DNA from: a virus
Lineage: Duplodnaviria; Caudoviricetes
Direction: 5' to 3' (one strand)
Virus record (IMG/VR): IMGVR_UViG_3300024042_000050
Coordinates: 1 to 24,727 of that record
Length of the DNA: 24,727 nt
The translations under genes were made by a program, and so were the position numbers. Of the stretch, positions 931 through 22,034 are shown in pieces. The notes under the pieces were generated by a model, which saw only the letters and a program-made list of their open reading frames with translations, was not told the DNA's origin and made no database searches. Position 1 is the first letter of the stretch, and the number at the start of each line of letters is the position of its first letter.

Positions 931-1136
931 GGCGTGGCCTCCTTCGGATCGGTGTCAGGGGTGGCGCGACGGCGCTCGCCAGTGGCGGGGTCGCGCACGT
1001 AGGAGCCGCCCAGGCCGGTGTGCGTGTCGCGCGGGCGCGGGGGCGTGGGCTCGTGGTGCGGCGGCTTCTTGCTGGCAGGGGCGGTTTGTGCAGACGTGTG
1101 CACACCGCCCGCCTTTTCAGGGGGGGTCTTGGGCAT
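927..1136 (-). CDS. Small hypothetical phage protein
   Basis: 69 aa with GLGGSYVRDPATGERRR core; ATGA overlap with the tail tube start. Confidence 0.6.
   Translation of the reverse strand: MPKTPPEKAGGVHTSAQTAPASKKPPHHEPTPPRPRDTHTGLGGSYVRDPATGERRRATPDTDPKEATP
1088..1103. repeat. Dispersed 16-bp palindrome, copy 1 (GTGCAGACGTGTGCAC)
   Basis: 15/16 match to GTGCACACGTGTGCAC; symmetry extends one further base each side. Confidence 0.85.
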
Positions 1137-1160
1137 GGATGCCTTTCGGGGGTTGAGGGG

Positions 1161-1529
1161 TTAGTGGCGCGGGGTGCGCAGGCGCACAGTGAGAAAGCGG
1201 GCGTACAGCTCGGGGTCGGGCTCGTAGTCGGCATCGCCTGCCGTCTCTTCCCACTGGTAGGCGGGCAATGCCTCCAGCGCGGCCCGCAGCGGGCCGCCGC
1301 CATCCAGGGGCAGCAGCGCGTCGAGTTCGTCAAGGTCGCGGGCGACGACGATCACGTTCACGTCGTGCTGGGTGTAGCCGCCGCCCATGCACCACTGCGC
1401 CTCGGGCTCGCTGTCCACGTCGAACACGACAGCGGGATAGACGGGTGCGGGGGGCAGCTCGATAGGCCAGGAGTTTGGAAACACGGCGCACAGCGCGGTG
1501 GTCAGGGTCTGGTGGATCGTGTCGCTCAT
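1161..1529 (-). CDS. Tail terminator / tail completion protein (DUF3168-like)
   Basis: 122-aa acidic protein with P..YPAVVF motif, between the gp10-like gene and the tail tube. Confidence 0.7.
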   Translation of the reverse strand: MSDTIHQTLTTALCAVFPNSWPIELPPAPVYPAVVFDVDSEPEAQWCMGGGYTQHDVNVIVVARDLDELDALLPLDGGGPLRAALEALPAYQWEETAGDADYEPDPELYARFLTVRLRTPRH

Positions 1530-2152
1530 GCCTTGCCTGCCTTTTCCAGGTCTTGCTGCAGCTTGGACTCCATGGCCTTGAGGGCTTCGCCCCTGCCCTG
1601 CTCCAGCGCCGGGGCGATGAAGGGCTTGGCCGCGACCGACTCCGAGGCCCGCGCTCGGCGGGCACGCAGCGAGTCTGCCGAGCGCTTACGCTTATAGGTG
1701 ATAAGGTTGCCGCTGCGCCCCTTGCGGGTGTATGTCAGTTCTTGCTGCCCTGCTCTGCCAGTGGCACGGCCCACGACCTTGTGGCCCTGCTCCACCCACC
1801 GCCAGTAATACGGGTCGTCCTCGTAGCGCTTAACGATGCGCCCTTTCTTGCTGACGGCCAGGTGGGCGCCTGACTTCTTGGCCTTGGCCGTGAGGTTGCG
1901 GCCGTGGCGCACGCCCAGGTGGTACTGCTCGGTACCTGCGGGGGCGCTGGTCTCGCGCTTGATGGCGATGTTTTTGATCATCGCCCCGGTGCGCCGCGAG
2001 CCGTTGGCCAGGGCAATCACCTTGGCCTTGCCCTTGAGCACGCCACCGGCTGCCACCAGCATGCGGCGACTGGTGCGCTTGCGCATGTCGTCGCGTACAC
2101 GCTCGAAGCCAGCGCGCATGTCGCCGATGCCGAGGATTTCGGTTTTAGCCAT
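1526..2152 (-). CDS. HK97 gp10-family neck/tail component
   Basis: YYWRWVEQGH and AKPFIAPALE motifs typical of gp10; synteny. Confidence 0.85.
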   Translation of the reverse strand: MAKTEILGIGDMRAGFERVRDDMRKRTSRRMLVAAGGVLKGKAKVIALANGSRRTGAMIKNIAIKRETSAPAGTEQYHLGVRHGRNLTAKAKKSGAHLAVSKKGRIVKRYEDDPYYWRWVEQGHKVVGRATGRAGQQELTYTRKGRSGNLITYKRKRSADSLRARRARASESVAAKPFIAPALEQGRGEALKAMESKLQQDLEKAGKA

Positions 2153-2483
2153 CGTTGAGCCCCGTGTCGCAGGTGAGGATCATCCAGCCGGGGTAATCGG
2201 CCATGGGTTTGACGTGCGTTATGCCCAGGGCCTGGCCCTTGTGGATGACACGCATTTGCGCGGTGATGCCGTTGCGCTCACGCAGCAGGAATTCCACACG
2301 GGCTACAGCCACCTGCCCTCCGGCGGAACTGCTGGCGCTGCGTTCGTTGCCGCTCATGTCGCGCCGCTGAGCCCAGCAGTCTTTGGCATGCACAGACCAT
2401 GTTTTCTTTGCGCCACCAGAGGCGCCGCGCGAAATGGCCGGGGCCTCGATGGAGATCAGAGTGTTCAGTTTCTGGCTGTTCAC
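2145..2483 (-). CDS. Head closure / head-tail adaptor (SPP1 gp16-like)
   Basis: Probable GTG start just after the upstream stop; (M)NSQKLNTLISIEAP...CWAQ...SGNE...ITAQMRV pattern. Confidence 0.8.
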   Translation of the reverse strand: MNSQKLNTLISIEAPAISRGASGGAKKTWSVHAKDCWAQRRDMSGNERSASSSAGGQVAVARVEFLLRERNGITAQMRVIHKGQALGITHVKPMADYPGWMILTCDTGLNDG

Positions 2484-2484
2484 G

Positions 2485-2793
2485 TCATGCCCCCATGTTC
2501 CGGTGCAGGCGCAAGATGCTGAGAGCAGCGGCTTCCTTGCTCTCGCGCTCCTGCTGGGTGTTGTTGCCAATGAAGCAATCGACCAGCAGCAACTGCGCAG
2601 CGATGATGTCCTCGGCGGACAGAATGCCGCGAGGGTCAGCGGCCATGGCTACCTCGGTCTCATACAGCGTGCCGTCGAGTACCTTGACGGCGCGGGCATG
2701 CGCCTGGTCTATTGCGCCCTGCAGATCCGTGGCGAGGTCAGGATCAAGACGCAGACGGGTCTTGGCCTCATCAAGCGTGGGCTTGGTACGCAT
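2485..2793 (-). CDS. Head-tail connector (HK97 gp6-like)
   Basis: PTLDEAKTRLRLD N-terminus, IIAAQLLLV helix, 102 aa, follows the capsid gene. Confidence 0.8.
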   Translation of the reverse strand: MRTKPTLDEAKTRLRLDPDLATDLQGAIDQAHARAVKVLDGTLYETEVAMAADPRGILSAEDIIAAQLLLVDCFIGNNTQQERESKEAAALSILRLHRNMGA

Positions 2794-2795
2794 GG

Positions 2796-3230
2796 CTAGC
2801 CGCCACCATCCAGGGCACCGCCTGCACCGCCAGGATGGCCCGCGCCATCCGAAGGCATGGCGCCGGGCGGGGCGCTGCCGTCCGTGGGCGCGCTCTGCTG
2901 CGTGCTACCCGCCTCACCCAGTGCCGGGCCTGGCGTATCGGTCTGCGCAAGCCCTTGCGGCTCCAGCGAGGCCACGCCAGACACGACAGCAGGCGCGGCC
3001 AGCGGCGCCTGCTGCGGTGCGGCGGGCTTGCGCTCAACCGTTTTCGGGGTGCGCTGTTGGCGCGGCGTGGGCAGCCGCGTACCCGATGCCGGGGCAGCAG
3101 ACGCGGCGGGCTTGCCGAGCATGCCGTGGCGTTGATAGTGGGCTACCGTGGGGGCGTCGAGTTCGGGCGGCGGATCATCGCCAGGGCGATAGCGTCTGCC
3201 CTGGCGCACAAAGGTCTTGAGCACTTCCAT
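2796..3230 (-). CDS. Hypothetical virion-associated protein with Pro/Ala-rich tail
   Basis: GGAG RBS at 3237-3240; MEVLKTFVRQGRRYRPGD small domain then low-complexity tail; the longer track ORF overlaps the capsid gene. Confidence 0.65.
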   Translation of the reverse strand: MEVLKTFVRQGRRYRPGDDPPPELDAPTVAHYQRHGMLGKPAASAAPASGTRLPTPRQQRTPKTVERKPAAPQQAPLAAPAVVSGVASLEPQGLAQTDTPGPALGEAGSTQQSAPTDGSAPPGAMPSDGAGHPGGAGGALDGGG

Positions 3231-3240
3231 GGATGGCTCC

Positions 3241-3273
3241 AAAGAAAAGGCCCGCGAGGCATGCCTGCGGGCC
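3241..3273 (-). terminator. Rho-independent terminator after the capsid gene
   Basis: Minus strand GGCCCGCAGGC-AT-GCCT(C)GCGGGCC stem followed by TTTTCTTT. Confidence 0.7.
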
Positions 3274-3287
3274 GAGTGAAAGGATGC

Positions 3288-3309
3288 GCCGTGCACACGT
3301 GTGCACGGC
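3288..3309. repeat. Dispersed palindrome, copy 2 (perfect 22-bp GCCGTGCACACGTGTGCACGGC)
   Basis: Perfect 16-mer at 3291-3306 with 3-bp symmetric extension; intergenic. Confidence 0.9.
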
Positions 3310-3321
3310 TGCGGTGCTGCG

Positions 3322-4701
3322 TCAGGCGAACGAGCCGACCACCATGGCGGCGGGACGCTCCACGGTGAAGGCCAAGCGCTCTTCGCAGAGGATGGCCACC
3401 ATGTTTTTGATGAAGAAGTCGTCGTGCTGCTCTGCCACGCGCACGGTGACTTCTTCACGGTCGTAGATGGTGGCGGCCAGCGACGAACCGGCGAGGAAGT
3501 CGCCCGCATCGAGGCCGTGGCTTTCCACCACGCGCTTACCCCACACGCGGGGCGCGGCGCCGTCGGTAGGTGTTCCGAACAGGTAGGCGCCATCGGTGGT
3601 TTTCATCATCTGGATCAGCGCCCAGTCGTCCAGGCTCAGTACGGCGAAGGTGGCGGGCAGCTTGGCCTTGCTGGACTGCAGGAAGGCCCAGCGCAGCTTG
3701 TCCAGGTTGTTGGCCCCTGCGGGCAGGCCTGCGGGAACGAATGCCGTGGCCTGGGGCACCAGGCCGAGCAGGTTGCCGTTGGTGCCGTCGCCGAAGAGCA
3801 GCGCTTCGTCTTCCTTGAGCTTGAGGCCGGAGCGCAGGCGGGTGTCGATCAGGCCGGAGAGCTGGGGTGCGTCCGCCAGAACCTGGCGGCTGGCAGGAAT
3901 CCAGTGCGCAATGGTTTCGACGGCGCTGCTCTTTTTCTCGAAGGTGAGGCCGCTTTCGTTCTTGGGCGCGCCTTCGCCGTTCTGCGGGCCTGCATTGTTG
4001 GTGAAGAGCTTCTCGGCCACCCACTCGACGGCATTGGTGCTGATGGAGACGGCCATGAACAGGTCGCGCACGGTGAGCGGTTCGTCAGGCTGCATGATGA
4101 TGCCGGGCACGCGGTAGGGCTCGATCAGCGCGCCCGCGCTGGTGCCGCCGCTGGTCACGGCGGCCTTGCCGAACAAGGGCGCGTTCATGGTGACCAGCTC
4201 GGCGATGCCGCCGCGATAGGTCTTGCACACCTCGGCCTCGGAGGCGAGCTGCCCCAGGCTCTTGCGTTGCTGCACACTGCCCAGCAGGTTGGCGGACTTC
4301 TTGGCCAGTTCGGTGACTTCGCTAGAGAGCTTTTCCACCGTTTTTTCTACCGTGTCCACTTTCTGCACGGCGTCTTGGAACGCGGCCTTGGTGGTGGCGT
4401 CCACGCCGCCCGCCTTCATCTCTTCATGCATCTTGCTCACGCGGCCGTCGAGGTCGTTGTGGGCTTTCTGCAAAGAGGCCACGGTGTCTTTGGCGGCCTT
4501 GGCAACATCGTTGAGCTGCTCCAGCGCCTTGCGAACATCACCGCCGACTTCGCCGGAGAGCGCCATGGGCATGGCGCCTGCGGCGGCGAGGCCTGCCCAG
4601 GCTTCGGGCGGGACGATGGGAACACCGATAACGGCGCATGCGGCCATGACGGCCAGGCCTGCGAGCAGGCAGAGGGTGAGGTGTTTGCGGGTGATTTGCA
4701 T
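3322..4701 (-). CDS. HK97-fold major capsid protein
   Basis: Coiled-coil delta domain, TSAGALIEP, ETIAHWIPASRQVLAD, LLFGDG, FIKNMVAILCEERLA motifs; ATG 4701 (TTG 4710 alternative). Confidence 0.95.
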   Translation of the reverse strand: MQITRKHLTLCLLAGLAVMAACAVIGVPIVPPEAWAGLAAAGAMPMALSGEVGGDVRKALEQLNDVAKAAKDTVASLQKAHNDLDGRVSKMHEEMKAGGVDATTKAAFQDAVQKVDTVEKTVEKLSSEVTELAKKSANLLGSVQQRKSLGQLASEAEVCKTYRGGIAELVTMNAPLFGKAAVTSGGTSAGALIEPYRVPGIIMQPDEPLTVRDLFMAVSISTNAVEWVAEKLFTNNAGPQNGEGAPKNESGLTFEKKSSAVETIAHWIPASRQVLADAPQLSGLIDTRLRSGLKLKEDEALLFGDGTNGNLLGLVPQATAFVPAGLPAGANNLDKLRWAFLQSSKAKLPATFAVLSLDDWALIQMMKTTDGAYLFGTPTDGAAPRVWGKRVVESHGLDAGDFLAGSSLAATIYDREEVTVRVAEQHDDFFIKNMVAILCEERLAFTVERPAAMVVGSFA

Positions 4702-4706
4702 AGAGA

Positions 4707-5342
4707 TCAATTCCAGGTAAGGTTGCGCGCGAGGGTCTTGAGTTCGTCTGCCAGCGTCTCGCTGTCCGGGGCACCGTCACGGTGGCCCAGCGACTTGAAG
4801 CCGCCAGACGCCAAGGCCTTGGCCTCGCGCTGGCTGTATCCGAGGCCGCGCAGCTGCGCCTCGAAATCTCGAATGGATGCGGCCTTGACGGTATCCACCA
4901 CGGCCTCGGGGTTCATGCCGAAGGCAACGACCGAAAACTCCCACAGCTCGGCCTTGGAAATGAGGCGGACATACCGGCCATCGCGCTCTTCCCAGGTGGC
5001 GCCGCCTTCGGGGATGTTGAAACCGACCGACAAGCCGTTGAGCACGCCGTCTTTCATGAGCGCGTAAGCGTCGCGTGCGTAGCTGACGCCGAGGCTGAGC
5101 TGGCCGTCCACACGCAGGCCGTGGGTGTCTTGGGCAAACTTGGCTTTGCCAACCAGGCGGCGCAGGTCGTGATCCAGGGCGATACGGATCTGGCCGTCGG
5201 GCGTGGTCTTGGCCTGGGTGAAGGCACCGGGCAAGATGACGTCATCGCCTAAGTCCACGTTGCCGAACACTGCGGCATAGCCGCTGAAAGTGCCGTCTTC
5301 CTGCGCGGCCTTAATGGTGAGGGGTGCAATCAGGCGATCCAT
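4707..5342 (-). CDS. HK97-family prohead protease
   Basis: FSGYAAVFGNVD.GDDVI.PGAF, GLSVGF, LWEFSVV motifs. Confidence 0.95.
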   Translation of the reverse strand: MDRLIAPLTIKAAQEDGTFSGYAAVFGNVDLGDDVILPGAFTQAKTTPDGQIRIALDHDLRRLVGKAKFAQDTHGLRVDGQLSLGVSYARDAYALMKDGVLNGLSVGFNIPEGGATWEERDGRYVRLISKAELWEFSVVAFGMNPEAVVDTVKAASIRDFEAQLRGLGYSQREAKALASGGFKSLGHRDGAPDSETLADELKTLARNLTWN

Positions 5343-6595
5343 TAGGCGCCTCCTGTCTTGTTGCGGGTGAGGATCTCGCCCAGCAGGTCGCTGGGTGCCA
5401 TGTTGAGCGGCACGTGCAGGTCATCTGCGCCTTCGCGCGTGTCCATGTTTTCGCGGTTGCGAATCTCGTTTTGCGAGATGGCGCCTGCTTGGCGCATCTT
5501 TAGGTAGTAGTCGGCGCGCTGGGTGCTGTCGCCACGCAGCAGGCCATTCACGTCAAACTCGAAGTACATGCCACCAGCACGCTCAGCTGGGGTCAGCAGA
5601 CAGGTGTTGAGCGAGGCCTCTATGCGCGTGAGATACGACAGCAGCGTGTAGTCAAGGAAGTGCTTGTTGGCCTGCTCGGTGTTGTTGTAGCTGGCCTTGT
5701 CGGTTTCCATGAGCATGTGTAGTGGCACGCGGTAGATGCGTGCCACTTCGGCGATCTGGAGCTTGCGCGCTTCGATGAACTGCGCTTCGTTGTTGGGCGT
5801 ACTGACTGGCTGGTACTCAGTGCTGCCATCGAGCACCGGCAAATGGCCCAGATCGCGCGAGGCCTGCAGGTATTTGGCAAAGCCCTCGCGGATCTGGTCA
5901 CGGCTCTTCTCGCCGAAGTCGGCCGTGGTTTTGAGGATGCCCTGTGGACGCCCTCCGCTGCCAAAGAACTCGGACGCGTACTTTTCCATCGCCATGGACA
6001 GTGCCAGGCTGTTGCTGTGGACACGGTGCGGTGCGTAGCCCTCCAGCTCGCCAACGCCTCCGAAGCCGCGCACCGGCATCACGTCTTCCCGGCGCAGCAG
6101 CTTGCGCAGGCCCTGGCGGTTGGTCAGCCAGTACATGACGCTGCCGTCGGGTTGCACCTCGGGCTGCACGCGGCTTTTGTGCACCGGCTGGATGCTGATG
6201 ATGCGGCCCGTGCTCTCGAACCGCGTGACCGGGTTGTAGGCTTGGCCCATGGTGGCCAGCGAGACCACCATGGCCTCTTTCCATTCCGGCGCAGTCATGT
6301 AGTCGCAGGGCTGGTAGCGCACCAGTCCGTAGCGCTCATCGTCGGTGGCGCGTTCGCGCCCACGGGCGGTCTTACGGTACAGGTGCAGCGGCAGGGTGCC
6401 CACGGTCTCGGCAATCAGCCGGATGGCCGACCAGGCTGTGGTGATCTGCAGCTGCGTGGTGTCTGCCACATTGATCTTGGCCCAAGTGGCGCCTGTGCTG
6501 ACTACGCTCCAGCCCTGTGTGCTGGTGAGTGTCAGGTCGGTGCCCTTGAGCGCCCATTGCGCACCGCGCAGCAGGGATCGGCGGATTAGGTTCAT
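5342..6595 (-). CDS. HK97-family portal protein
   Basis: IAETVGTLPL, QFIEARKLQIAEVARIYRVP, FDVNGLLRGD, NEIR motifs. Confidence 0.95.
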   Translation of the reverse strand: MNLIRRSLLRGAQWALKGTDLTLTSTQGWSVVSTGATWAKINVADTTQLQITTAWSAIRLIAETVGTLPLHLYRKTARGRERATDDERYGLVRYQPCDYMTAPEWKEAMVVSLATMGQAYNPVTRFESTGRIISIQPVHKSRVQPEVQPDGSVMYWLTNRQGLRKLLRREDVMPVRGFGGVGELEGYAPHRVHSNSLALSMAMEKYASEFFGSGGRPQGILKTTADFGEKSRDQIREGFAKYLQASRDLGHLPVLDGSTEYQPVSTPNNEAQFIEARKLQIAEVARIYRVPLHMLMETDKASYNNTEQANKHFLDYTLLSYLTRIEASLNTCLLTPAERAGGMYFEFDVNGLLRGDSTQRADYYLKMRQAGAISQNEIRNRENMDTREGADDLHVPLNMAPSDLLGEILTRNKTGGA

Positions 6596-8400
6596 GTCGT
6601 CTCTTCTGCAAACGATGCCCAGAAGGCTTGCGTCTTCTTGGCGCTGCTAGGCTCCTCTGCCAGAGCGAGGGCGCGGCCCAGCGCCATGAGCATGGCGATG
6701 GGGCCATCGATCTTGTTTTCGGGCCGCTCTTTGGTGGGCGTCATCAACTCGTTGAACTTGCTGACTTTGACCACCAGATTGCTGACCATCCAGGCCATGA
6801 CCGGATTTCCGTCGTGCAGCAGCTTGCCCTCGCGCACCATGTTCTCGACCTGTATCAGTGCAGGCGTGAAGAACACGCTGCGCTGAGCGATCTCGACCAG
6901 TGGCAGGCCCTCTTCAATCAGTTTTCCCGCGAAGTACATGGACAGCGCAGGGTCAAATGCAATTTCCTGCACATCCCACTGGCGGCAGTAGCGGCGCAGG
7001 TCTTCGGCCACGCGGTCAAAGTCGGTGAGGTCGCCGTCGGTGACCTCCACGTAGCCCTGTCGGGCCCAACCGCTGAGGTGGGCGTTGCCGCTTTCCTGCA
7101 CAGCCAGCTCATTCAGGTACAGCCGTATGCATAGGCCCCACTGGCCGTCATCCATCTGCCAGGCAATGGCCAGGGCTGCGAAGTCCTTTTTCTGAGCCAG
7201 GTCAAGGCCCATGTACACCTTGGCACCAAGAGGAATACTGTCGAGCGTGGCGGGCACTTTGCCGCAGCGCTCCCAGGCGCGCATGTCCATCCATGGGCTT
7301 TCGCCGCTGACCCAAACATTGAGGCGCTTGGTCAAAAAGTTGTTAAGCGCCGAGGGCATAGCCTCTGCCTTGCGGGCCTGGGCTGCCATTTCATCGGCCT
7401 GCACGGACTTGCCGAAATTCGGGTTGGCCTTGGGCCACACCGCTGGATCGAATGGGTCATCGCCATCGTCGATGGTGTAGATGATCCCGAAGACCCGGTC
7501 GTCCTCGATGACCCCCTCCAGGATCTTGGTGATGTGCGTGCGCCGCTCGTAGCAAATACCAGAGCGGTCGGTTCCTGCGGTGGTGATAGTCCACAACAGC
7601 GACTGTTCGCGTGCGCCACGGGCGGTGTCGATCACGTCGTACACCGCCCGGGTCCTATGGGCGTGTAGTTCGTCCAGCAGCGCGAAGTGCACGTTCAGAC
7701 CGTCCAGCGTGCTGCCCTCGGCGGCCAGCGGCGCGGCCTTGCTGCTGGTGTGATCCACCGTCAGGATGTGCTGTTGGATGACCACGCCCAGCTCGGTGCA
7801 CAGATCGGGCGTGATCCGTGCCATGGAACGTGCGTCGTCGAACACGATGCGCGCCTGGTCGCGCGTCGTGGCAGCGGTGTAGCACTCTGCGCCGTGTTCC
7901 CCGTCGGCCGCCAGCATGTACAACAGCAGGCCTGAACCCTTGGCGCTCTTGCCGTTCTTGCGGGCGACCTCTTCGTACACTTCCAAGAAGCGACGCTTCC
8001 CCTGCATCGACAGAATGTCGAGCATCCTGCTGTTGAGCTGTCTATCGTCAAGACCTTCGGCTAAGGCGGACTCGCGGAAGGCGTCAAGCTCACTTTCCGT
8101 CCAAGCGCGGTGCACCCAGCCAAAGACGGTAGTGATGATGAAGCACTGCCAGGGCTCAAGCTCAAGCAGGCGCCCTTCACGTGCCCACTTGCCCTTGATG
8201 TGCGGCAGCAGCTCGATGAAGGCACAGGGCCGCTCGGCCGCAGCCTCGTCAAACACCCATCGCCATTCCTTAGACGGCGCGCGTGCCAGGTCGTCTGCCT
8301 GGCGCTGCACGGCCAGCTTCACCCATTTGCAGGCCGCAACTTCCCCATCTAGCACGTCGCGCATGTATTTCTGCGCCTGCTGGATGTAGGAGTGGGTCAT
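6592..8400 (-). CDS. terL: Terminase large subunit
   Basis: ARKNGKS Walker A, LLDELHAH Walker B, ITTAG, GLDLA nuclease and KIDG motifs. Confidence 0.95.
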   Translation of the reverse strand: MTHSYIQQAQKYMRDVLDGEVAACKWVKLAVQRQADDLARAPSKEWRWVFDEAAAERPCAFIELLPHIKGKWAREGRLLELEPWQCFIITTVFGWVHRAWTESELDAFRESALAEGLDDRQLNSRMLDILSMQGKRRFLEVYEEVARKNGKSAKGSGLLLYMLAADGEHGAECYTAATTRDQARIVFDDARSMARITPDLCTELGVVIQQHILTVDHTSSKAAPLAAEGSTLDGLNVHFALLDELHAHRTRAVYDVIDTARGAREQSLLWTITTAGTDRSGICYERRTHITKILEGVIEDDRVFGIIYTIDDGDDPFDPAVWPKANPNFGKSVQADEMAAQARKAEAMPSALNNFLTKRLNVWVSGESPWMDMRAWERCGKVPATLDSIPLGAKVYMGLDLAQKKDFAALAIAWQMDDGQWGLCIRLYLNELAVQESGNAHLSGWARQGYVEVTDGDLTDFDRVAEDLRRYCRQWDVQEIAFDPALSMYFAGKLIEEGLPLVEIAQRSVFFTPALIQVENMVREGKLLHDGNPVMAWMVSNLVVKVSKFNELMTPTKERPENKIDGPIAMLMALGRALALAEEPSSAKKTQAFWASFAEETT

Positions 8401-8957: not shown

Positions 8958-8964
8958 AGTCAAT

Positions 8965-9058
8965 CCTTTCGGGGTACCCCCCCCTCCAAAACCTGCGCGC
9001 ACAAAAATAAAGCTAAGCGGTCGGTTTCCGGTGTGTGGCTGTGAACTTTCTCCACCCC
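8965..9058. other. Probable cos packaging region
   Basis: Intergenic between HNH and terS; G/C runs, GGGGTACCCC palindrome (8971-8980) and A/T tract; canonical position for HK97-like cos; cut site not determined. Confidence 0.6.
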
Positions 9059-9448: not shown

Positions 9449-9465
9449 GGGGGAGGGGCAACGGG

Positions 9466-10018: not shown

Positions 10019-10349
10019 GCTGCACCCCGCCGTCCTCGCCCGCCGCCCTGCCCTGCCACACGCGCTCCGGCCAAATGCACACGTGTGTACAGCCCATCTC
10101 GACCATGAAACCAGCCGCATCCTTCAGCACGCCACTGGGCAGGCCTGCGGGCTGGCCCACGACGTGGCCGTTTTCCACCGCGTAGAAGCACCCCGGCTCG
10201 CCCCGCAAGCCACGGCGCACCAGCGCATAGGCTTCCTTACCAAAGTGCACCGCCCGATCCTCGATACACGCCAGGGTCTCAGGCATATGCCGCTTGATGG
10301 TCTCCAGCCGGTACGCCATCAAGACATCGCTGTTCTTCGCCGCTGTCAT
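10005..10349 (-). CDS. Hypothetical phage protein
   Basis: 114 aa, MPETLACI...VRRGLRGEPGCFYAVENGHVVG; GGAG upstream; overlaps the Q-like start. Confidence 0.7.
   Translation of the reverse strand: MTAAKNSDVLMAYRLETIKRHMPETLACIEDRAVHFGKEAYALVRRGLRGEPGCFYAVENGHVVGQPAGLPSGVLKDAAGFMVEMGCTHVCIWPERVWQGRAAGEDGGVQHGAD
10075..10090. repeat. Dispersed palindrome, copy 3 (ATGCACACGTGTGTAC)
   Basis: 14/16 match to consensus. Confidence 0.75.
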
Positions 10350-14319: not shown

Positions 14320-14586
14320 AGTGCAAAACCTCGCGTGAAGGGCTATGGATGGACAGGCGCGCGCCTGCGAGACTGCGCACCATGGAGAGAAGAAGAAAAA
14401 GCCACCCGCCCCGCAGCCATGCGAAACACCGCGTACCTTCCCGCGCGCGGCGTACCAACAGCATGAAGGGAGAGGAGCAACCCCCTGGCGGCATGGCCTG
14501 GAGCGGTGCGGGTGGGGAAAAGGGCGCCCGCCCTGCCCTGGCATACGATGGGAGTTCCCACACAACCATCGCCAAGGAGGGCGGAC

Positions 14587-14793
14587 ATGGAAAAAGAAGA
14601 GTTCCTGGCCAGGCACACTTTCAGCGACCAAGGCCTAGACACCTGGCGGCGTGTTGCCGAAACCTTGATGCAAGACCCGAAGCTGGAACCCATACGCACG
14701 GCAAAGCTGCTGGGACTGCTTATCGAACGGCTGGAGCAGAAGGAACTGCTCGACATGTCCGAGATCGACGAGATGCTGATCGCGGTCGTATAG
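14587..14793 (+). CDS. Small acidic hypothetical protein, antisense to the pR operon
   Basis: AAGGAGG RBS 14574-14580, ATG 14587, 68-aa helical-looking protein. Confidence 0.7.
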   Translation: MEKEEFLARHTFSDQGLDTWRRVAETLMQDPKLEPIRTAKLLGLLIERLEQKELLDMSEIDEMLIAVV

Positions 14794-14939
14794 CGAACCG
14801 TCATCGCGCCACCCCTCTCGCCTCGCGCCACACTCGCACACGGCGCAGTTCCGCCTCGTATGCAATGCGACGCAGGCGCTGGGATGGCTTTTCTCGCCCT
14901 GCTGGCAATGCAGGCCGGTGGGCAGGAAGAAGTGGCGGC

Positions 14940-15227
14940 CTACGCATGGGCCGCCCCCTGTGCTGCAGTAGCGGCAGCGGCTACGCCAGACCCAGGACTC
15001 AAGGGCGTCCTGCTTGCCAGATAACCCCATTCCACATCTGGGCGCAGCTCTTCCAGCAGAACGCTGCCAGAAGATTCCCGCTCAATGCGAATACACAGCT
15101 CAGCACCCAGCCTGCCACCTGTAGACAGCACTTTTCGGAGATAGCCCAGACTGGTGCCACACCGCACCGCGAACGCGGCTTGGTCAGCCAGCGTCAAGCT
15201 GTTGAGGTAAATGCGCAAAGATTCCAT
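14940..15227 (-). CDS. Cro/YdaS-like repressor
   Basis: QAAFAVRCGTSLGYLRK HTH and IERESSGSV..EELRPDVEW motif; divergent from cI. Confidence 0.85.
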   Translation of the reverse strand: MESLRIYLNSLTLADQAAFAVRCGTSLGYLRKVLSTGGRLGAELCIRIERESSGSVLLEELRPDVEWGYLASRTPLSPGSGVAAAATAAQGAAHA

Positions 15228-15235
15228 GGCGCATT

Positions 15236-15306
15236 ACTATACCCCAGGGTAAACAAATTACCGATACCCCTGGCACATTTACCTATTGGTATGCGCCCGG
15301 GAGAAT
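15236..15306. promoter_or_regulatory. OR-like operator and divergent promoter region
   Basis: TACC-CCAG-GGTA (15240-15251), degenerate TACC-CCTG-GCAC (15265-15276), TACC-TATT-GGTA (15280-15291); TTTACC-17-GAGAAT toward cI; TATAGT -10 toward cro. Confidence 0.75.
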
Positions 15307-15313
15307 GCCGCGC

Positions 15314-15814
15314 ATGAGTACCCCCGAAGAACTAGAGCACTGGCGCCTACGCCTGTCAGAGCTTGTCGAATGCCTGAAAGCCACGCGGGGCATGAACCAA
15401 AGGGCCGTAGCCGATCAAGCAGGCATCGCACCCGACTACCTTTCACGCCTGCTGTACGCCCCCGAGAAAAAGGGGCGCAAGAACCTTGGCATGGACACCA
15501 TGCGCAAAATCTGCGCTGGCTTTGAACTCGACCCGAACTGGTTTGATCTGCCCTTGGGGGCGGCCCTACCCCGTGACGATGCGGCCACTGCCGCGCCAGA
15601 ATTCGTGCTCCGTGAGGCCAACGAAGGCACAAAGTCTGTCCGCCCTCAAATCCTGTGGCCCTTCCCGCTTGTCACATATCGACGGGTTCAGGATCTAAAG
15701 GCCGCTCTCGGGCCGAGGCTCGGACATGAAGCCATGATGGACATTGGCAAGACCCTTGATGTGATCGTGACCAAATGGGAACGCGAGGCCATCGCCCGAA
15801 AAAGCCGTGCCTAG
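15314..15814 (+). CDS. CI-like XRE-family repressor without an S24 peptidase domain
   Basis: MNQRAVADQAGIAPDYLSRL HTH, WFD motif; divergent from cro; start 15314 or 15305. Confidence 0.8.
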   Translation: MSTPEELEHWRLRLSELVECLKATRGMNQRAVADQAGIAPDYLSRLLYAPEKKGRKNLGMDTMRKICAGFELDPNWFDLPLGAALPRDDAATAAPEFVLREANEGTKSVRPQILWPFPLVTYRRVQDLKAALGPRLGHEAMMDIGKTLDVIVTKWEREAIARKSRA

Positions 15815-15856
15815 ACCGTCTGCGACGATCTACTACTTCACCCCTACCACCCCCCC

Positions 15857-17050
15857 CTAGAGCGCGAACGGCTCTATCGTTCGTAGCATGTGCGATTTGC
15901 TCATGTCCCGGCGCAACTCGAAGCGCTCCATCGCCAGCATTGGGTCAAGCAGAGTCAGTTCGTTAAAGTTCAGACCAGACCACGTTGCACGGTCTATCCG
16001 GGCGCTCACCAGGTAATCATCCTGCATGTGCCCTGTCGCTCCATTGGCACGCTGCGAGTAGCCAGACACAACAACCAGCACAACGGATGGCAGCCGGTTG
16101 AACACTACGCCAACCAGCCGAAACAGCACTGCGTGAATGTGCCTGGCGTAGAGCTCTCTCGCCCTGGCATCCGCCAAAGTCTTGACCACCAGCCGATCTG
16201 CGCGCGCAGGGACACTAGCCACCTGGCGCGGCATATCCTCAAACTCCGGCAAGTCAACATCCAGCAGCACCGCCGTGCCGCCCTGTGCCAGCTCATAGCC
16301 AACACTGGTTTCGCGCGGCCACTCCAAATCCTCGAATGCCGCCTCTAACTCTTGCTCCATGAGCGCAGTATCGTGGTGCAGTTGCTCCACCCGCGCCACC
16401 TCAGCAGCCTGCAGGGTATCGTGCTGCGCCTTTTCAGCAGACCACTGCTCCACAGCTCGCCTATGGCGCTCTCGGGCCGCTTGGTGGCTGGCCAGCGCCC
16501 GCGATTTCAACGGAGGCAACAATCGCTGCAAGAGCGTCAGCGGTGCCAGGCGCAGTACAGGCTCATCATCGCCAAAAGGCACCACCACATGCTGACGGCG
16601 CACTAGTGGTGCAGGCGTATCAGTGTGCAAAGACGAAACCGCCTCCATCTCGCCATTGACACGATCACACGCCGCCTGCAACCCCGCCACGATGGCCGCT
16701 TTGTTCTGCTGGCGCAGCACCTTGACCGTCGCTTCGCTCAGGGGATCACCATTCGCATCGAGATAGCGAATCTGGCCATCCTCCGTGAACATGAGTTGCA
16801 CATCAATGGCCTTCGGCACCGCCTGCACTGCTGCAGCCTTCGCACCCCGGCGAGCCGTCCCTGATGGTGCAGACAGCAATTTCCGCGAACTCAAACCTGT
16901 GCCAGGAACGCCGAGGTTCGCGTAAGTGCCACGGCGCGTAAACGATACCGAAGCACCACGCGGCCCCACATTCATGCTCAGACCGTTCATACCCACGTTC
17001 AGCCGCACGCCCGGCGCAATCTTGATCGTTTTACGGAATCGCGTAGCCAT
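15857..17050 (-). CDS. DUF4236-domain accessory protein
   Basis: RFRKTIKIAPGVRLN...GLS..VGPRG...G.PGTGLS N-terminus characteristic of DUF4236; GGAG RBS; codon usage differs from flanks. Confidence 0.8.
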   Translation of the reverse strand: MATRFRKTIKIAPGVRLNVGMNGLSMNVGPRGASVSFTRRGTYANLGVPGTGLSSRKLLSAPSGTARRGAKAAAVQAVPKAIDVQLMFTEDGQIRYLDANGDPLSEATVKVLRQQNKAAIVAGLQAACDRVNGEMEAVSSLHTDTPAPLVRRQHVVVPFGDDEPVLRLAPLTLLQRLLPPLKSRALASHQAARERHRRAVEQWSAEKAQHDTLQAAEVARVEQLHHDTALMEQELEAAFEDLEWPRETSVGYELAQGGTAVLLDVDLPEFEDMPRQVASVPARADRLVVKTLADARARELYARHIHAVLFRLVGVVFNRLPSVVLVVVSGYSQRANGATGHMQDDYLVSARIDRATWSGLNFNELTLLDPMLAMERFELRRDMSKSHMLRTIEPFAL

Positions 17051-17104
17051 AGACCCTCTCCGCATGCAATAACACCTAGCAACATTCTGCCGCATTGCAA
17101 AATT

Positions 17105-17168
17105 TACCCATGGGTATTGACTAATCAATTTACCCGCAGGTACATTACCCACCGTTTACCCAACGGAG
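17105..17168 (+). promoter_or_regulatory. OL/pL-like operator-promoter
   Basis: TACC-CATG-GGTA (17105-17116), TACC-CGCA-GGTA (17131-17142), degenerate sites at 17146 and 17157; TTGACT(17117)-18-TACATT(17141). Confidence 0.75.
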
Positions 17169-17175
17169 GATAGCA

Positions 17176-17919
17176 ATGCACACCCATCCCCCCAGTGCAC
17201 ACGTGTGCACGCCAATCACCCACGCCGGGCTCCTGACCCAGTACTGGGACGGCAAACCCCGCCTCAACCGCTGGCTGCCCAAGGCCCTGGGCCTGGACGC
17301 CACGGCCAGCAAGAAGGAGCGCCGCTACCTTGAGCTGGTGGGCCGCTACATCGTCATGGCGCACGTGGCGCGCCTGCTGGAGCCGGGCTGCAAGTTCGAC
17401 CACGCGGTGCTGCTGCGCGGCCCTCAAGGCATGGGCAAATCGACGCTGGTGCAGGCGCTGGTGGGCGCAGGGCACTACAGCGACGTGCCCGCCGAGTTCA
17501 AGAACGGCTCAATGCGCCATCTTCCGCCCAGCGAATGCATCCTGGCCTATGAACTGACCGAGCTTTCCATGTTCAGCCGGGCAGAGATCGAAGGCGTGAA
17601 GGCCTTCCTCTCCTGCTGCACAGACCGCTTTCGCGCGCCCGATAGCACCTGGATAGTGGTGAAGCCGCGCCAGTTCGTCGTGTGGTGTAGCAGCGGCGAG
17701 TGCGACTACCTGAGCGACGCCACCAACCGCCGCTTCTGGGTCGTTGACGTTGCCAAGCCCGTGAACACGGCCTGGCTGCACAAACACCGCGCCCAGCTCT
17801 TCGCCGAGGCGCACCACCGCTTTCGCCAGGGCAAGCGCTTCACGCCCTCGGCGCGGCAAGAGGAACGCTACTTCGTGCCTGCGGCCCTGCGGGCCAGCAA
17901 GAAGGGCGGTGCGGCATGA
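17176..17919 (+). CDS. Stand-alone VapE-type ATPase, paralogue of the primase-helicase ATPase domain
   Basis: GGAGG RBS; GPQGMGKS Walker A, NRRFWVV, RAQLFAEA; aligns by eye with the 11184-11823 region. Confidence 0.85.
   Translation: MHTHPPSAHVCTPITHAGLLTQYWDGKPRLNRWLPKALGLDATASKKERRYLELVGRYIVMAHVARLLEPGCKFDHAVLLRGPQGMGKSTLVQALVGAGHYSDVPAEFKNGSMRHLPPSECILAYELTELSMFSRAEIEGVKAFLSCCTDRFRAPDSTWIVVKPRQFVVWCSSGECDYLSDATNRRFWVVDVAKPVNTAWLHKHRAQLFAEAHHRFRQGKRFTPSARQEERYFVPAALRASKKGGAA
17195..17210. repeat. Dispersed palindrome, copy 4 (perfect)
   Basis: GTGCACACGTGTGCAC about 50 nt downstream of the pL-like -10. Confidence 0.9.
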
Positions 17920-18614
17920 ATACCACCATTACCTTTGAGGTTGACAGCGAAAACCTGCAGTCCTACACCGACCAGTACTTGGCCGCGCTGTGGCACATCG
18001 GGCAGGCCAACCCCGCTCCTTTTGGAGATCGGGACGCCTGCCGCTTTGCCGAGGATGTGGGCAGAGAGATCATTCGCCGGTTCTTGGCGAACACCGGGCC
18101 GGAACTGTGGCACCACCAAGGGCGGCATGTGGAGGCAGTCCCCAAAACCTACGCTGCCGAGCCATCAACTATTGACGAACAGATTCGCTCCCAGGTTCAG
18201 CCGGGCGAGTTCGTCACGGTTCCAGACTTGATGCAGCGCCTGGGCCTGCCATTTGAGGCAGCGACCGAAGGGGCGCTGCGCGACGCCCTGCACCGCAACG
18301 GCTTCATGCCGCAGCGGAAAACAGGCGGCATGCGGCGCCGTGGCTTTCTCGCGCCGCCTACGCCCGCCCTTGATCCAGATCCTTCTGGATGTCTTCACGC
18401 GCCTCGCCAAGAGCGTGATAGGCCTGACGGACAGCCGCAGACATTTCCTCGCGCGGCGTCGTGTCCCGCTGCCCCGCAGCAAGAAAGCCTGCAGCCAGTT
18501 GAACAGCCTGCGCAAACCGCACTTCATCAATCGCCTGGCTCATCCGATCACCTCTCTGGTTCTGGTGGCCGGAGTCTAACGGCACAGCAGGGCCGGGAAG
18601 GCGGTGCAGCATGA
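17916..18614 (+). CDS. Chimeric hypothetical protein containing a copy of the primase-helicase C-terminal domain
   Basis: ATGA coupling at both ends; FVTVPDLMQRLG...GGMRRRGF matches FVTIPDLVQALG...GGQRRRGF. Confidence 0.7.
   Translation: MNTTITFEVDSENLQSYTDQYLAALWHIGQANPAPFGDRDACRFAEDVGREIIRRFLANTGPELWHHQGRHVEAVPKTYAAEPSTIDEQIRSQVQPGEFVTVPDLMQRLGLPFEAATEGALRDALHRNGFMPQRKTGGMRRRGFLAPPTPALDPDPSGCLHAPRQERDRPDGQPQTFPRAASCPAAPQQESLQPVEQPAQTALHQSPGSSDHLSGSGGRSLTAQQGREGGAA
18358..18543 (-). CDS. Candidate nested antisense small protein (61 aa)
   Basis: GAGGTG RBS, TAGACT -10-like hexamer upstream, amphipathic helical sequence. Confidence 0.5.
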   Translation of the reverse strand: MSQAIDEVRFAQAVQLAAGFLAAGQRDTTPREEMSAAVRQAYHALGEAREDIQKDLDQGRA

Positions 18615-18973
18615 CCACCCACCTCCCAGCCTTCCCATGGCGCGCCCAGGTGCAAAAGGGCAGCACCGGAACCCTCTGGGTACATCGCCTCGACAGCTAC
18701 TTCGGCGCCATCCCCGCCACTGTCGTGTTTCACCGGCCCCGCCCGAACGGCCTGGACGTTATCGAGGTACAGCACGACGCCGTGGCAGAGGACGGCCAGA
18801 CCATCACGCGAAACATCGCTGGCCCCTACGCATGGTTTCGCCGCAACCGCCGTGGCCGGTGGATCTCACTTGACCGCCAGCCGCATCGCTACACCGGCAC
18901 GCCCGCCTACTGCGACCAATTCGAGCCTGGCCCACAGCAGTACGTGCCCCTCCGTCTAGATATTCCGTTTTGA
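18611..18973 (+). CDS. Hypothetical phage protein
   Basis: 120 aa, ATGA-coupled, typical codon usage. Confidence 0.65.
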   Translation: MTTHLPAFPWRAQVQKGSTGTLWVHRLDSYFGAIPATVVFHRPRPNGLDVIEVQHDAVAEDGQTITRNIAGPYAWFRRNRRGRWISLDRQPHRYTGTPAYCDQFEPGPQQYVPLRLDIPF

Positions 18974-18981
18974 GGTACAGC

Positions 18982-19128
18982 ATGCCCCCCCTGCTCCCCT
19001 TCCGCATCCACTGCGCAGGCCTCAAATACATCGCCCTGGCGCCCACGTCCTGCATCGCCGTCATCGAGGCCATGGCGCGCCACAACGTGCACGGCGCGAC
19101 CGCCCGGCCGCTGGAGGCCACGCCATGA
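18982..19128 (+). CDS. Small hypothetical protein (48 aa; not in the ORF track)
   Basis: GAGGT RBS; MPPLLPFRIHCAGLKYIALAPTSCIAVIEAMARH...; ATGA overlap with the next gene. Confidence 0.6.
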   Translation: MPPLLPFRIHCAGLKYIALAPTSCIAVIEAMARHNVHGATARPLEATP

Positions 19129-19328
19129 GCGCGCCCGTGCAGATCGACGGCCCGCACCGCCCGCGCGGCCGCACGCGCCTGCTGCGCGCGCTGGCTACCG
19201 CCCGCTCCCCCCTGGGCACGGTGTTGGCCATGGCGCTGCTGCTGCTTGCCGCAGCCGCTACCGGCTACCTCGCAGCCCTGCCCGCCGCCGTGCACACGTG
19301 TGCAACCACCCCACCCGCCAGGAGCTGA
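19125..19328 (+). CDS. Small putative membrane protein
   Basis: GGAGG RBS; hydrophobic LGTVLAMALLLLAAAATGYLAAL segment. Confidence 0.6.
   Translation: MSAPVQIDGPHRPRGRTRLLRALATARSPLGTVLAMALLLLAAAATGYLAALPAAVHTCATTPPARS
19290..19305. repeat. Dispersed palindrome, copy 5 (GTGCACACGTGTGCAA)
   Basis: 15/16 match to consensus. Confidence 0.85.
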
Positions 19329-19329
19329 C

Positions 19330-19635
19330 ATGCCTCGCGCCCAGAACACCACCGGCGTGCACATGCACGCCAAGCCCACACCCATGCCCCGCACGAGTGG
19401 CCTGCAGCCGCTCCCCAACGCGGCCCGCATCCACACCCACAAGCTGGATCTGCGCAGCATGCCGCGCGCCGAGGCGCCCGCCTGGCGCACCAGCGCGCCG
19501 TACACCTGCCCCGAGCTGCGCCAGCCCACGACCATCTCGCCCGCACGCATGGCCGCCTTTGCCCTGCCCAGCCGCACCGGCGCCACGCTGCGCTTTCCTG
19601 ACGGGCGCATCACCCACTCTCCGCTGGAGGCATGA
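19330..19635 (+). CDS. Hypothetical phage protein
   Basis: AGGAG RBS; YTCPELR...AFALPSR; ATGA overlap with the ParB-like gene. Confidence 0.65.
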   Translation: MPRAQNTTGVHMHAKPTPMPRTSGLQPLPNAARIHTHKLDLRSMPRAEAPAWRTSAPYTCPELRQPTTISPARMAAFALPSRTGATLRFPDGRITHSPLEA

Positions 19636-22034
19636 CCATGGCCACCGACCAACACGACCAGGCCACCGCCGCAATTCCACTGCCCGGCGCCGGGCCGCGC
19701 ATGTTCATGGCGCCCGTGGCGAGCATCGTTGCCAGCCTGACGAACCCGCGCAAGACGTTTGACCAGGCCAAGCTGCGCGAGCTGGCCGACAGCATTGCTG
19801 CCAGCGGCGTGCACCAGCCCATTCTGGTGCGGCCCCTGCCACCCGAGCGCCTGGCCGATACCTCGCGCGCCCGCAGTGCCGTGCCGGTGTGGCCCATTGC
19901 CACCACGCGCAAGACCGAGCCCATCGAATACGAGCTGGTGGCCGGTGAGCGCCGCTGGCGTGCCTGCCAGCTGGCGGGCGTGGCCGAGATCCCGGTGATG
20001 GTGCGGCACCTGGGTGACGAGCAGGTGTTGGAGATCCAGATCGTTGAGAACCTGCAGCGCGAGGATGTAACCGAGCTGGAAGAGGCCGAGGGCTACGAGG
20101 TGCTGATGTGCCATGGCAACCTCAACGCCGACCAGGTGGGCGCCAAGATCGGCAAGAGCCGCAGCTACGTCTACGCCCGCCTCAAGCTGCTTGACCTGTG
20201 CGCCAAGGCTCGCGAGGCGCTGCGCGAAGGCAAAATCGATTTCAGTCGGGGCCTGCTGATCGCGCGCATCCCCGACGAAGGCCTGCAGCTGCAGGCGCTG
20301 AAATTCTGCACGCAGCCGCGCTACGGCGGCGGAGGGCCCAGTTACCGCGAGTGCGCCACCCACGTCCAGCAGAACTACATGCTCAAGCTGAGCGCGGCCA
20401 AGTTCAAAATCACCGACGCCGATCTTGTGCCAAAGGCTGGAAGCTGCAAGGAGTGCCCCAAGCGCACCGGCGCCAATCCAGACCTCTTCCAGGACGTGGA
20501 CGGTGCAGACGTGTGCACCGACCCCAAGTGCTACCACGCCAAGGAAGAGGCCCACAGCATCGCCATCAAGAAGGCCGCGCTGGAGAGCGGCGCGCACATC
20601 ATCGAAGGCCGTGAGGCCAAGGCCCTCATGCCCAACGCGTGGAGCAGTGAGGTCAAGGGCTACCTGCGGCTGGACGACAAGAGCGACAGCCCTACCGACA
20701 AGCCGCTGCGCAAGCTCATCGGCAAGGCCATGGAGCAGCAAGGCATCAAGCCCACTCTGGTGGCCAACCCGCACAAGGGCGGCGAGCTGGTGGCCGTCAT
20801 CACTCTAGACCAAGCCGACGTGCTGCTCAAAGCAGCCAACCAGGAAGAGGCCGCGTCCAAGCTCAACCAGGATGCCCAGCGGGACGCAGAAAGCGCAAAG
20901 CGCCAGGCTGCGGCCGAGGCCAAGACCGCCTATGAAGAGCAATGGCGCTGGGATCTGCTGGCCGCCACCTGGGCGGAGATCACTGGCGGTACGCACGAAT
21001 GCCCTGCCGACGCCGTGCTGCGCCACATTGCCACCGACATGGCCAAGGCCCTGAACCAGGACAAGGCCAAGAAGCTGTGCAAGCTGCTCGACCTGGGCAA
21101 GGTGGCCCCGGTGGCAGGCCTATTGCAGTACATCGCAGACACCGACGCACCTGGCGATGCGCTGCAGCTGATGGTGATGTTCCAAGACGTGGAATACCGC
21201 CACTGGCTGCCCACCGAAGACACCAACAAGGGCCTGCTGATGGTGGCCCAAGACTTCGGCGTGGATGTGGAAGGCATCAAGGCCAGGACCAAAGCCAACC
21301 AACGGGCCGCTGCCAAGGCCAAAACCGAGCGCGAAACCCTCAAAGCTGCAGCCCAGAATGCCGCCTCTACCCCGCCCCCCGCTGCGCAAGCCAGTCCTAC
21401 GCGCGCGAAGGCCAAAAAATCCACGGCCCCGGCTGCGCTGGCGCGCGATGCCGCGCGCGTGAAGACCACGGCGGCCGAGGCCCAGGCGCAGATTGCGGCC
21501 GAGCTGCGGGCGCTGGAGGAAGCAAATCAGGCGCCTGCGGCGCAAGGCGACGATGCTGCGGCTGTCGCTGGCGCGCAGCCGCAGGCCGCGCCCCGTGGCG
21601 GCGCCGCTGGCGGTGCACAGGCCACTGAGCAGGCGCCTGCGGCGCAGGGCAACGAAGCGCCACCAGCTGCTCGCGCGCTGGCGGCGGCAAGCGCCCTGCC
21701 CCTGGCCAGCGCCACGTGCGCAACCCCGGCGCCCGCGCAGCCCAGCGCCCCAGCGGCAGACCCCGCCCAGGCGGCCGCCTGCGCCGCTGCGCCCAGTGGC
21801 CAGGCCCGTGCAGGCGTGGACACCGGGGCAGCAGAGCAGGTGGTGGGCATCGGTGCGCGCGTGCGGGTCAACGAGACGGCCACCGGCAAGCAGCAAAAAC
21901 CATGGATCGGCTACGAGGGCAACGTGGTGGCGCAGATCGGCCCTAGCGCATGGGATGTGGCCATCGAGCGCAGCAAGCGCTGCGCGCCCAAGCGGGTGGG
22001 TTTTGATGTGACAGAGCTGGAGGTGCTGACATGA
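19632..22034 (+). CDS. Large ParB/RepB/Spo0J-family protein
   Basis: NPRKTFD..L.ELADSI..GVHQPILVR, ELVAGERRWRA, IVENLQRED, HTH ADQVGAKIGKSRSYVYARLKLL; Cys cluster; long C-terminal extension. Confidence 0.9.
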   Translation: MTMATDQHDQATAAIPLPGAGPRMFMAPVASIVASLTNPRKTFDQAKLRELADSIAASGVHQPILVRPLPPERLADTSRARSAVPVWPIATTRKTEPIEYELVAGERRWRACQLAGVAEIPVMVRHLGDEQVLEIQIVENLQREDVTELEEAEGYEVLMCHGNLNADQVGAKIGKSRSYVYARLKLLDLCAKAREALREGKIDFSRGLLIARIPDEGLQLQALKFCTQPRYGGGGPSYRECATHVQQNYMLKLSAAKFKITDADLVPKAGSCKECPKRTGANPDLFQDVDGADVCTDPKCYHAKEEAHSIAIKKAALESGAHIIEGREAKALMPNAWSSEVKGYLRLDDKSDSPTDKPLRKLIGKAMEQQGIKPTLVANPHKGGELVAVITLDQADVLLKAANQEEAASKLNQDAQRDAESAKRQAAAEAKTAYEEQWRWDLLAATWAEITGGTHECPADAVLRHIATDMAKALNQDKAKKLCKLLDLGKVAPVAGLLQYIADTDAPGDALQLMVMFQDVEYRHWLPTEDTNKGLLMVAQDFGVDVEGIKARTKANQRAAAKAKTERETLKAAAQNAASTPPPAAQASPTRAKAKKSTAPAALARDAARVKTTAAEAQAQIAAELRALEEANQAPAAQGDDAAAVAGAQPQAAPRGGAAGGAQATEQAPAAQGNEAPPAARALAAASALPLASATCATPAPAQPSAPAADPAQAAACAAAPSGQARAGVDTGAAEQVVGIGARVRVNETATGKQQKPWIGYEGNVVAQIGPSAWDVAIERSKRCAPKRVGFDVTELEVLT
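20501..20520. repeat. Dispersed palindrome, copy 6 (CG-GTGCAGACGTGTGCAC-CG)
   Basis: 15/16 match at 20503-20518 with 2-bp symmetric extension, inside the ParB-like gene. Confidence 0.85.

Follow-up and report, generated by a model that had tools for sequence, protein, structure and literature searches.

What reads a 16-bp palindrome that recurs along the genome of a temperate phage, and what might the resulting complexes do? The question is raised by IMG/VR virus record IMGVR_UViG_3300024042_000050 (Duplodnaviria; Caudoviricetes), whose entire 24.7 kb (positions 1 to 24,727) is hereafter called the window and represents part of a lambdoid temperate phage. An initial annotation described six copies of the palindrome with 0–2 mismatches and a ParB-family protein with no visible ParA. 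Here, we find that the palindrome, repeated about five times per phage, probably serves to load a ParB that the phage itself encodes. The copies and the gene are as follows, where ORF denotes an open reading frame.

1088–1103: site 1, at codon 12 of a 69-residue ORF in the head-tail region (927–1136, minus strand)
3291–3306: site 2, a perfect copy with the major capsid stop codon 15 bp upstream and a terminator-like hairpin after it
7117–7132: a degenerate seventh copy, inside terL
10075–10090: site 3, in an ORF between the primase-helicase gene and the Q-like antiterminator gene
17195–17210: site 4, a perfect copy in the first left-operon ORF (codon 7), with a -10 element 48 bp upstream
19290–19305: site 5, in a small ORF of the left operon, with parB ~340 bp further downstream
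20503–20518: site 6, inside parB at codons 291–296 (GADVCT)
19632–22034, plus strand: parB, encoding an 800-residue ParB identified by profile matches, motifs and models

Matches to GTGCACACGTGTGCAC occur at 1088, 3291, 10075, 17195, 19290 and 20503 with 1, 0, 2, 0, 1 and 1 mismatches, respectively, which agrees with the initial description. Chance would yield 0.29 matches at up to three mismatches, six were reached in none of 100 shuffles, and an order-5 Markov model gives 0.07 matches per window with a maximum of 1 across 60 runs. These mismatch counts and controls reject a chance origin for the six copies. Because the window contains no match with three mismatches, the set is also distinct from background. 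The terL copy has a weight-matrix score of 13.3, compared with 21.8–28.2 for the six main copies. Five of the six reside within ORFs, on both strands and in two reading phases (0 and 1), and encode the peptides originally read from them.

The consensus given by a weight matrix (122 sites, 31 records) is GTGCANACGTNTGCAC. Positions 6 and 11 form a Watson-Crick pair in 59 of the 122 sites and a G-T pair in 7, and are unpaired in 56 (47 pairs would be expected if the positions were independent). The conserved centre, first given as CACGTG, is corrected to ACGT since positions 6 and 11 are free. This frequent lack of pairing fits a pair of half-sites read by a protein dimer, and an RNA stem is not required. 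All six sites of one relative (G179) match the variant GTGCAGGCGTCTGCAC, including the copy in parB, where the change replaces Asp with Gly in a ParB that also has a divergent helix-turn-helix (HTH). This variant was found in several lineages (G179, G352, G103, G375 and G388).

Association of the palindrome with a long ParB

On the basis of sequence comparisons, GTGCANACGTNTGCAC marks a clade of integrating lambdoid Betaproteobacteria prophages that encode a long ParB. Among 162 loci selected by their ParB (3–40 kb each, partly redundant), 108 carry a site outside parB. Fifty whole records were picked from these loci by length, and sites are present in 45 of them (median 5), compared with 4 control matches across all records. 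Independently of ParB, 80 loci were selected via the primase-helicase by alignment search; a single-protein primase search gave nothing. Sites are present in 16 of the 17 primase loci with a ParB nearby, versus 10 of the 63 without. Three of these ten ParB-less loci have a ParB elsewhere in the record, six are 31–78% complete, and the remaining one is a complete record with a single one-mismatch copy. When 15 of the 53 site-less primase loci were checked as whole records, neither ParB nor site was found. Finally, ParB is the sole protein present in all of 19 distant site-bearing loci, as their selection dictates, with the primase in 6 and a Q-like protein in 0; these loci are 20-kb stretches, so a common protein may lie outside them.

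These findings uphold the proposed co-occurrence in its general form, in that the motif travels with the clade ParB, but some ParBs have no sites, and some sites occur in records where ParB was not detected. These last records are incomplete or unrelated. Accession NZ_CP083453.1 (locus L540), deposited as a 36.9-kb circular Comamonas odontotermitis plasmid, encodes an integrase and ParB and carries six sites; it is a complete circular phage of the window phage's family. Acidovorax phage Aval (ParB 68% identical) and Variovorax phage VarioGold (ParB 58% identical) are relatives that have been cultured; each has five sites by weight matrix, and VarioGold is a prophage that can be induced and whose annotation includes attP. 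The host of the window phage is likely a member of Comamonadaceae.

The motif was also examined in 401 host-family genomes. An exact copy is present in 27 of these (5 for the reversed-motif control) and absent in 374, and the clade ParB is encoded in 31, with both present in 13. At least two exact copies are found in 8 genomes, all of which encode the clade ParB. Of the 18 ParB genomes that lack an exact copy, 12 have one-mismatch copies, which lie within ~40 kb of parB in 10. In Delftia sp. PS-11, four of five sites fall within 18 kb around the prophage parB, and sites are likewise clustered around parB in Variovorax (five of six) and Curvibacter (five of six). Noviherbaspirillum has two four-site clusters, and no sites were found in Rhodoferax. 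Thus, the suggested comparison of motif density between prophage and host chromosome places the motif within prophages. Canonical parS clusters are located elsewhere in five of five hosts, and their TGTTT arms differ from the GTGCA arms of the phage site, as originally claimed. Identification of the 16-mer as host parS or as a host repeat is rejected by its rarity in host genomes and by the separate canonical parS.

The site within parB and the encoded protein

The strongest evidence for the proposed pairing of ParB with the palindrome is the synonymous constraint on the site within parB, together with its covariation with the dispersed copies. Codons were compared in 130 parB orthologues of <85% identity, taken from 163, and the in-parB site is present within one mismatch in 82 of the 130. 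At the site codons, Ser is encoded by AGT in 59 of 69 cases (5.0 expected), Gly by GGT in 21 of 31 (3.6 expected) and Ala by GCA in 79 of 94 (13.1 expected). Of 178 columns tested, those of Ser and Ala rank highest, with z values of 23.8 and 20.0 (next 9.5); relatedness inflates these values, but does so for every parB column. Hence this copy is held at synonymous codons, which is what the initial annotation had suggested checking. Synonymous constraint and mixed reading phases together reject protein-level convergence as the cause of the motif, in line with the earlier claim that protein similarity does not explain the copies. Loci L104 and L106 have lost the in-parB copy and kept dispersed copies. 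In Bacillus subtilis, a parS is located within spo0J.

Assignment of the 19632–22034 product to the ParB family is confirmed by matches to ParB_N (PF02195, E 7e-26) and HTH_ParB (PF17762, E 1.5e-14). The protein comprises, in order, a CTPase-fold domain (GERR and ENLQR motifs), the HTH, a four-cysteine motif, a helical middle region, an Ala/Pro-rich linker and a predicted C-terminal barrel. Residues G85, R88, E119, N120 and R123 are invariant in 26 aligned rows, and ENxxR is present in 130 of 130 orthologues. A predicted model of the N-terminal 300 residues (predicted local distance difference test, pLDDT, 85) matches Caulobacter ParB (6t1f) with a template-modelling (TM) score of 0.86 by target. 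By sequence, the protein is nearest to chromosomal ParB (E 1e-47), with KorB at E 1e-17. The KorB domain PF08535 has no match in the window ParB and falls below cut-off in orthologues. The score for the PRTRC ParB family TIGR03734 is 134.8 against a cut-off of 278.6, which places the protein outside that family.

Relative to Caulobacter ParB (PMC7383237), the equivalents of K171, S172 and R173 are kept, while Ala/Gly, Ser and Leu mostly take the places of N178, G201 and R204. This pattern predicts a site that is related to, yet unlike, parS. Ser at the G201 position is present in 110 of 112 motif-bearing ParBs versus 8 of 18 motif-less ParBs, but is weak evidence of specificity because 7 of these 18 form one outgroup clade. 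After the HTH, 126 of 130 orthologues have the four-cysteine motif; zinc binding by it is our guess. A mostly helical model is predicted for the middle region (pLDDT 96), for which sequence searches of Pfam and of solved structures gave no match. In predicted models, the C-terminal 65 residues are similar to SH3/KOW barrels, NusG-KOW among them (TM 0.69–0.75). In 5 of 18 hand-picked orthologues (L154, L157, L163, L134 and L130), ParB instead ends in an H-NS C-terminal DNA-binding domain that scores above the Pfam cut-off.

The reported lack of a visible ParA holds for the window and its relatives. No ParA family match was obtained among the 32 window ORFs scanned, and PF13614 was found in 0 of 50 ParB records, 33 of which are at least 90% complete (the control was positive in 14 of 14 genomes). 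The ParA-binding motif (L/F/I)G(K/R)G(L/F/I), as defined in PMC12704722, was sought up to 50 codons from where the ParB match begins and is present in 0 of 130 ParBs. Likewise, the 32 scanned ORFs yielded no KorA family match.

Site placement and the possible role of ParB

Among 25 records with at least four sites, sites are present in the left operon upstream of parB in 25, between the primase-helicase gene and Q in 22, in parB in 16 and in or at terL in 13. Within a zone, the exact position of the site and the gene that contains it vary among relatives. A site lies in the same ORF or zone as site 1 in relatives, and the site after the capsid gene has the same position in Aval, VarioGold, G458 and G463. 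Conservation of placement by zone rather than by base suits a clamp that loads and then slides. Of the 98 left-operon sites, 17 lie 24–114 bp downstream of a sigma-70-like promoter (1.8% of control windows), and 77 lie within 45 nucleotides of a likely gene start (28% of controls), including 21 in which the first triplet of the motif is itself the start codon. The sites spread over ~40 kb with no centromere-like cluster, and the element encodes an integrase. Site spacing falls below the random median in 18 of the 25 records, with p < 0.05 in only 4 (median p 0.29), and therefore even spacing as a general property is not supported.

The left operon of the window, in which parB resides, is preceded by these elements:

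17117–17146, plus strand: pL-like promoter, TTGACT-18-TACATT
17105 and 17131: two TACCNNNNGGTA copies, likely repressor operators, flanking or overlapping the pL-like promoter
15240–15291: two TACCNNNNGGTA copies, likely repressor operators (OR), between cro and cI

Four copies of TACCNNNNGGTA are present in the window, compared with 0.02 expected, and these copies are likely repressor operators. Because these operators are another palindrome, the 16-mer is distinct from the repressor site, and its candidacy as a CI/Cro operator is rejected since TACCNNNNGGTA occupies those places. Their location at the pL-like promoter suggests that parB lies in an operon that would be shut by repressor in the lysogen. 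The placements of 16-mer copies that were singled out at the start, namely just past the pL-like promoter, after the capsid gene and within parB, are all correct.

We favour a reading in which ParB is a KorB-like clamp, dependent on cytidine triphosphate (CTP), that damps early transcription, including that of its own gene, and we assign this reading a tentative probability of about 0.45. Gene order and the operator-like palindromes suggest that ParB would be made only when repressor is off the left promoter. After infection or induction, the protein is predicted to form a CTP-dependent clamp that slides on phage DNA, and the clamps would probably damp early transcription as KorB does, their own operon included. 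Sites located ~50 bp into the left transcript, inside parB and ahead of the Q-like gene would provide negative feedback on early genes, and the same three sites would offer a point of control over the transition to late genes. The parts of this reading differ in strength. ParB very probably binds the 16-mer and, given binding, loading and sliding with CTP are probable, whereas a mainly transcriptional output, given the rest, is only slightly favoured. We consider it doubtful that ParB constitutes a third regulatory layer of integrating lambdoid phages beside CI/Cro and Q, in which a CTP clamp with a private address would mark the entire phage genome as the phage's own chromatin after induction, tie development to the CTP level of the host and carry swappable C-terminal effectors (SH3/KOW-like or H-NS) along the DNA.

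Several observations weigh against the favoured reading. Most sites are embedded well within coding sequence and are remote from promoters; neither a KorA-like partner nor a target promoter was identified. Binding of ParB to the site, use of CTP and an effect on expression are each inferred. In PMC12704722, 17 of 28 ParB-fold proteins tested bound no nucleoside triphosphate. Moreover, the loci were chosen via ParB and are related, so their counts are not independent. Five of the 50 ParB records lack a one-mismatch site (four have one to three weaker copies and one has none), as do 6 of the 31 ParB-positive host-family genomes, and no site was found in a Myxococcus plasmid whose ParB is 39% identical, of which 50 of 64 kb were covered. 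Conversely, G440 (L377:1-3717) keeps three sites although the N-terminal half of its ParB is missing; a C-terminal remnant was recognised by eye, and the loss is likely a natural deletion. An unrelated phage, G001 (76.8-kb record, 74% complete), carries 11 copies with no ParB found.

The same protein and sites could instead serve a structural function, with clamps that coat the phage DNA once it is excised and replicating, so as to compact, position or shield it or to recruit host SMC. Sites that span the whole genome, the 4 of 25 records spaced more evenly than chance (best ~7 kb apart), the long helical middle region and the H-NS domains that end some ParBs are all compatible with this role. 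However, even spacing is not general, and although sites occupy the left-operon zone in all 25 records and the pre-Q zone in 22, stretches of 12–27 kb in the tail region are often free of them. Regulation fits this distribution better than uniform coating, and we regard a structural function as rather unlikely. Activation or de-silencing of phage promoters at a distance, as by BisD or VirB and possibly via the C-terminal barrel, draws on the NusG-KOW resemblance of that barrel, on a site that precedes the Q-like gene in 22 of the 25 records and on the BisD precedent (PMC12409273). It is distinctly unlikely, given that many orthologues lack the C-terminal module or carry a different one in its place, that the phages encode CII-like and Q-like activators of their own, and that sites within transcripts suit a roadblock.

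There is also little probability that another protein, of phage or host, binds the sites and that ParB only travels with them. Such a protein would accommodate G001, whose relatives have dispersed TGCA-N6-TGCA palindromes and short, different ParB-N proteins, as well as the site-less ParB records, and the window itself lacks the tail and lysis region. But the distant site-bearing loci have no other protein in common, the repressor operators differ, the motif is rare in hosts outside prophages and hosts have separate parS, and the in-parB site is constrained and covaries with the dispersed copies. Classical partition of a plasmid-state prophage through a host ParA is very improbable, even though NZ_CP083453.1 was deposited as a circular plasmid with six sites and the ParB domain is nearest chromosomal ParB. 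Both NZ_CP083453.1 and the window encode integrases, VarioGold is inducible with an attP, and neither ParA nor the ParA-binding motif was found. Early expression from a left operon likely shut by repressor in the lysogen, together with the lack of ParA machinery, argues against partition.

We give the least credence to a nut-like RNA hairpin or a recombination joint for swapping gene modules. In lambda, nutL is located at the head of the left operon, a place that site 4 occupies here, and the proximity of 77 of 98 left-operon sites to gene starts and the similar leaders that precede different genes fit such a joint. Weak coding constraint at protein N-termini would also give enrichment at gene starts, and 21 of the 77 use a motif triplet as the start codon. 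A structured RNA is not supported, since positions 6 and 11 are unpaired in 56 of 122 sites and no Rfam match was obtained.

KorB of plasmid RK2 binds 16-bp OB operators at varied promoter distances and represses at long range as a sliding CTP clamp (PMC11790492). The window system is similar in its ParB-family protein and in its dispersed 16-bp candidate sites at varied distances from promoters. However, KorB is plasmid-encoded and needs KorA as a clamp lock (PMC11790492), whereas the window ParB belongs to an integrating phage with no KorA-like partner found, has 800 residues with extra domains and is closer to chromosomal ParB. Chromosomal ParB-parS is nearest in fold and sequence and uses a 16-bp palindrome with an ACGT centre (PMC7383237), but differs in its arms, in sites clustered at oriC rather than dispersed along a prophage, and in its ParA.

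BisD-bisS of ICEclc also involves a long ParB fusion that is encoded by an integrated element, acts after activation, forms a CTP clamp and has sites within genes, and BisD activates promoters of its own element after sliding (PMC12409273). Unlike the window system, it has an upstream parA, uses two 23-bp sites, includes an activation domain and works with BisC as partner, and it drives conjugation genes (PMC12409273). VirB of Shigella flexneri is likewise a ParB-related, CTP-dependent transcription regulator, but counters H-NS silencing on a virulence plasmid, a target for which the window ParB has no shown counterpart. PRTRC ParB is similarly long, with similarity over residues 37–318 of the window ParB; in addition to its score below cut-off, no PRTRC genes were matched in the window.

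Orphan ParBs without the ParA-binding motif are common on mobile elements, prophages included (PMC12704722), and those of prophages, whose DNA targets are not known, tend to be labelled partition proteins or nucleases. In the available main text of that study, the terms 'palindrom' and 'ChIP' have 0 occurrences and no DNA site is named. Term searches of the available texts found ParB mentioned twice and palindromes never in the VarioGold paper (PMC9658991), and partition absent from the Aval paper (PMC11619371). The literature searched, in which few subscription papers were covered, contains no description of this site, and nothing was found on the motif sequences or on binding data for temperate-phage ParBs. 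Thus, although orphan prophage ParBs are already known as a class, the specific candidate site for this clade appears to be new and is well supported as a ParB target. One widespread ParB clade thereby gains a precise candidate site and grounds for no longer being labelled as partition proteins. The role of a ParA-less phage ParB is directly testable in an inducible cultured model, VarioGold in Variovorax sp. ZS18.2.2, and a site unlike host parS could serve in an orthogonal ParB/parS pair for labelling DNA loci.

Phage context and related elements

The structural and packaging genes of the window encode tail tube, capsid, protease, portal, terminase and HNH nuclease proteins. Its other genes include those for the primase-helicase, CII-like, Cro-like and CI-like proteins and the left operon with parB, along with two genes for integration and excision:

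23281–23613, plus strand: excisionase-like gene
23516–24727, minus strand: tyrosine integrase gene

In the first left-operon ORF (17176–17919), a short site-bearing leader is followed by a second VapE-like helicase domain of shorter length. Leaders similar to this one precede different genes in relatives. The interval from cI to the pL-like promoter holds a DUF4236 gene on the opposite strand (15857–17152), which has a lower G+C content and is likely an accessory gene.

G001 encodes its own DNA polymerase, and the window-type motif is present in 0 of 24 of its relatives. A ParB_N match was obtained in 11 of these 24, mostly in short proteins of another type, and a sister ParB of the window type in G001 is therefore not supported. 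Of 16 G001 relatives examined, 13 have related palindromes of their own in at least three copies. The family (loci L451–L529, for example L466, L496, L525, L462 and L472) consists of ~85–105-kb phages with their own DNA polymerase. Its dispersed 16-bp palindromes have common arms and phage-specific centres, as in TTGCAATAAATTGCAA, GTGCAATCGATTGCAC, GTGCAATTAATTGCAC and CCGCAAACGTTTGCGG, and number 3–9 copies per 17–24 kb examined, with the version in G001 itself being the window phage motif.

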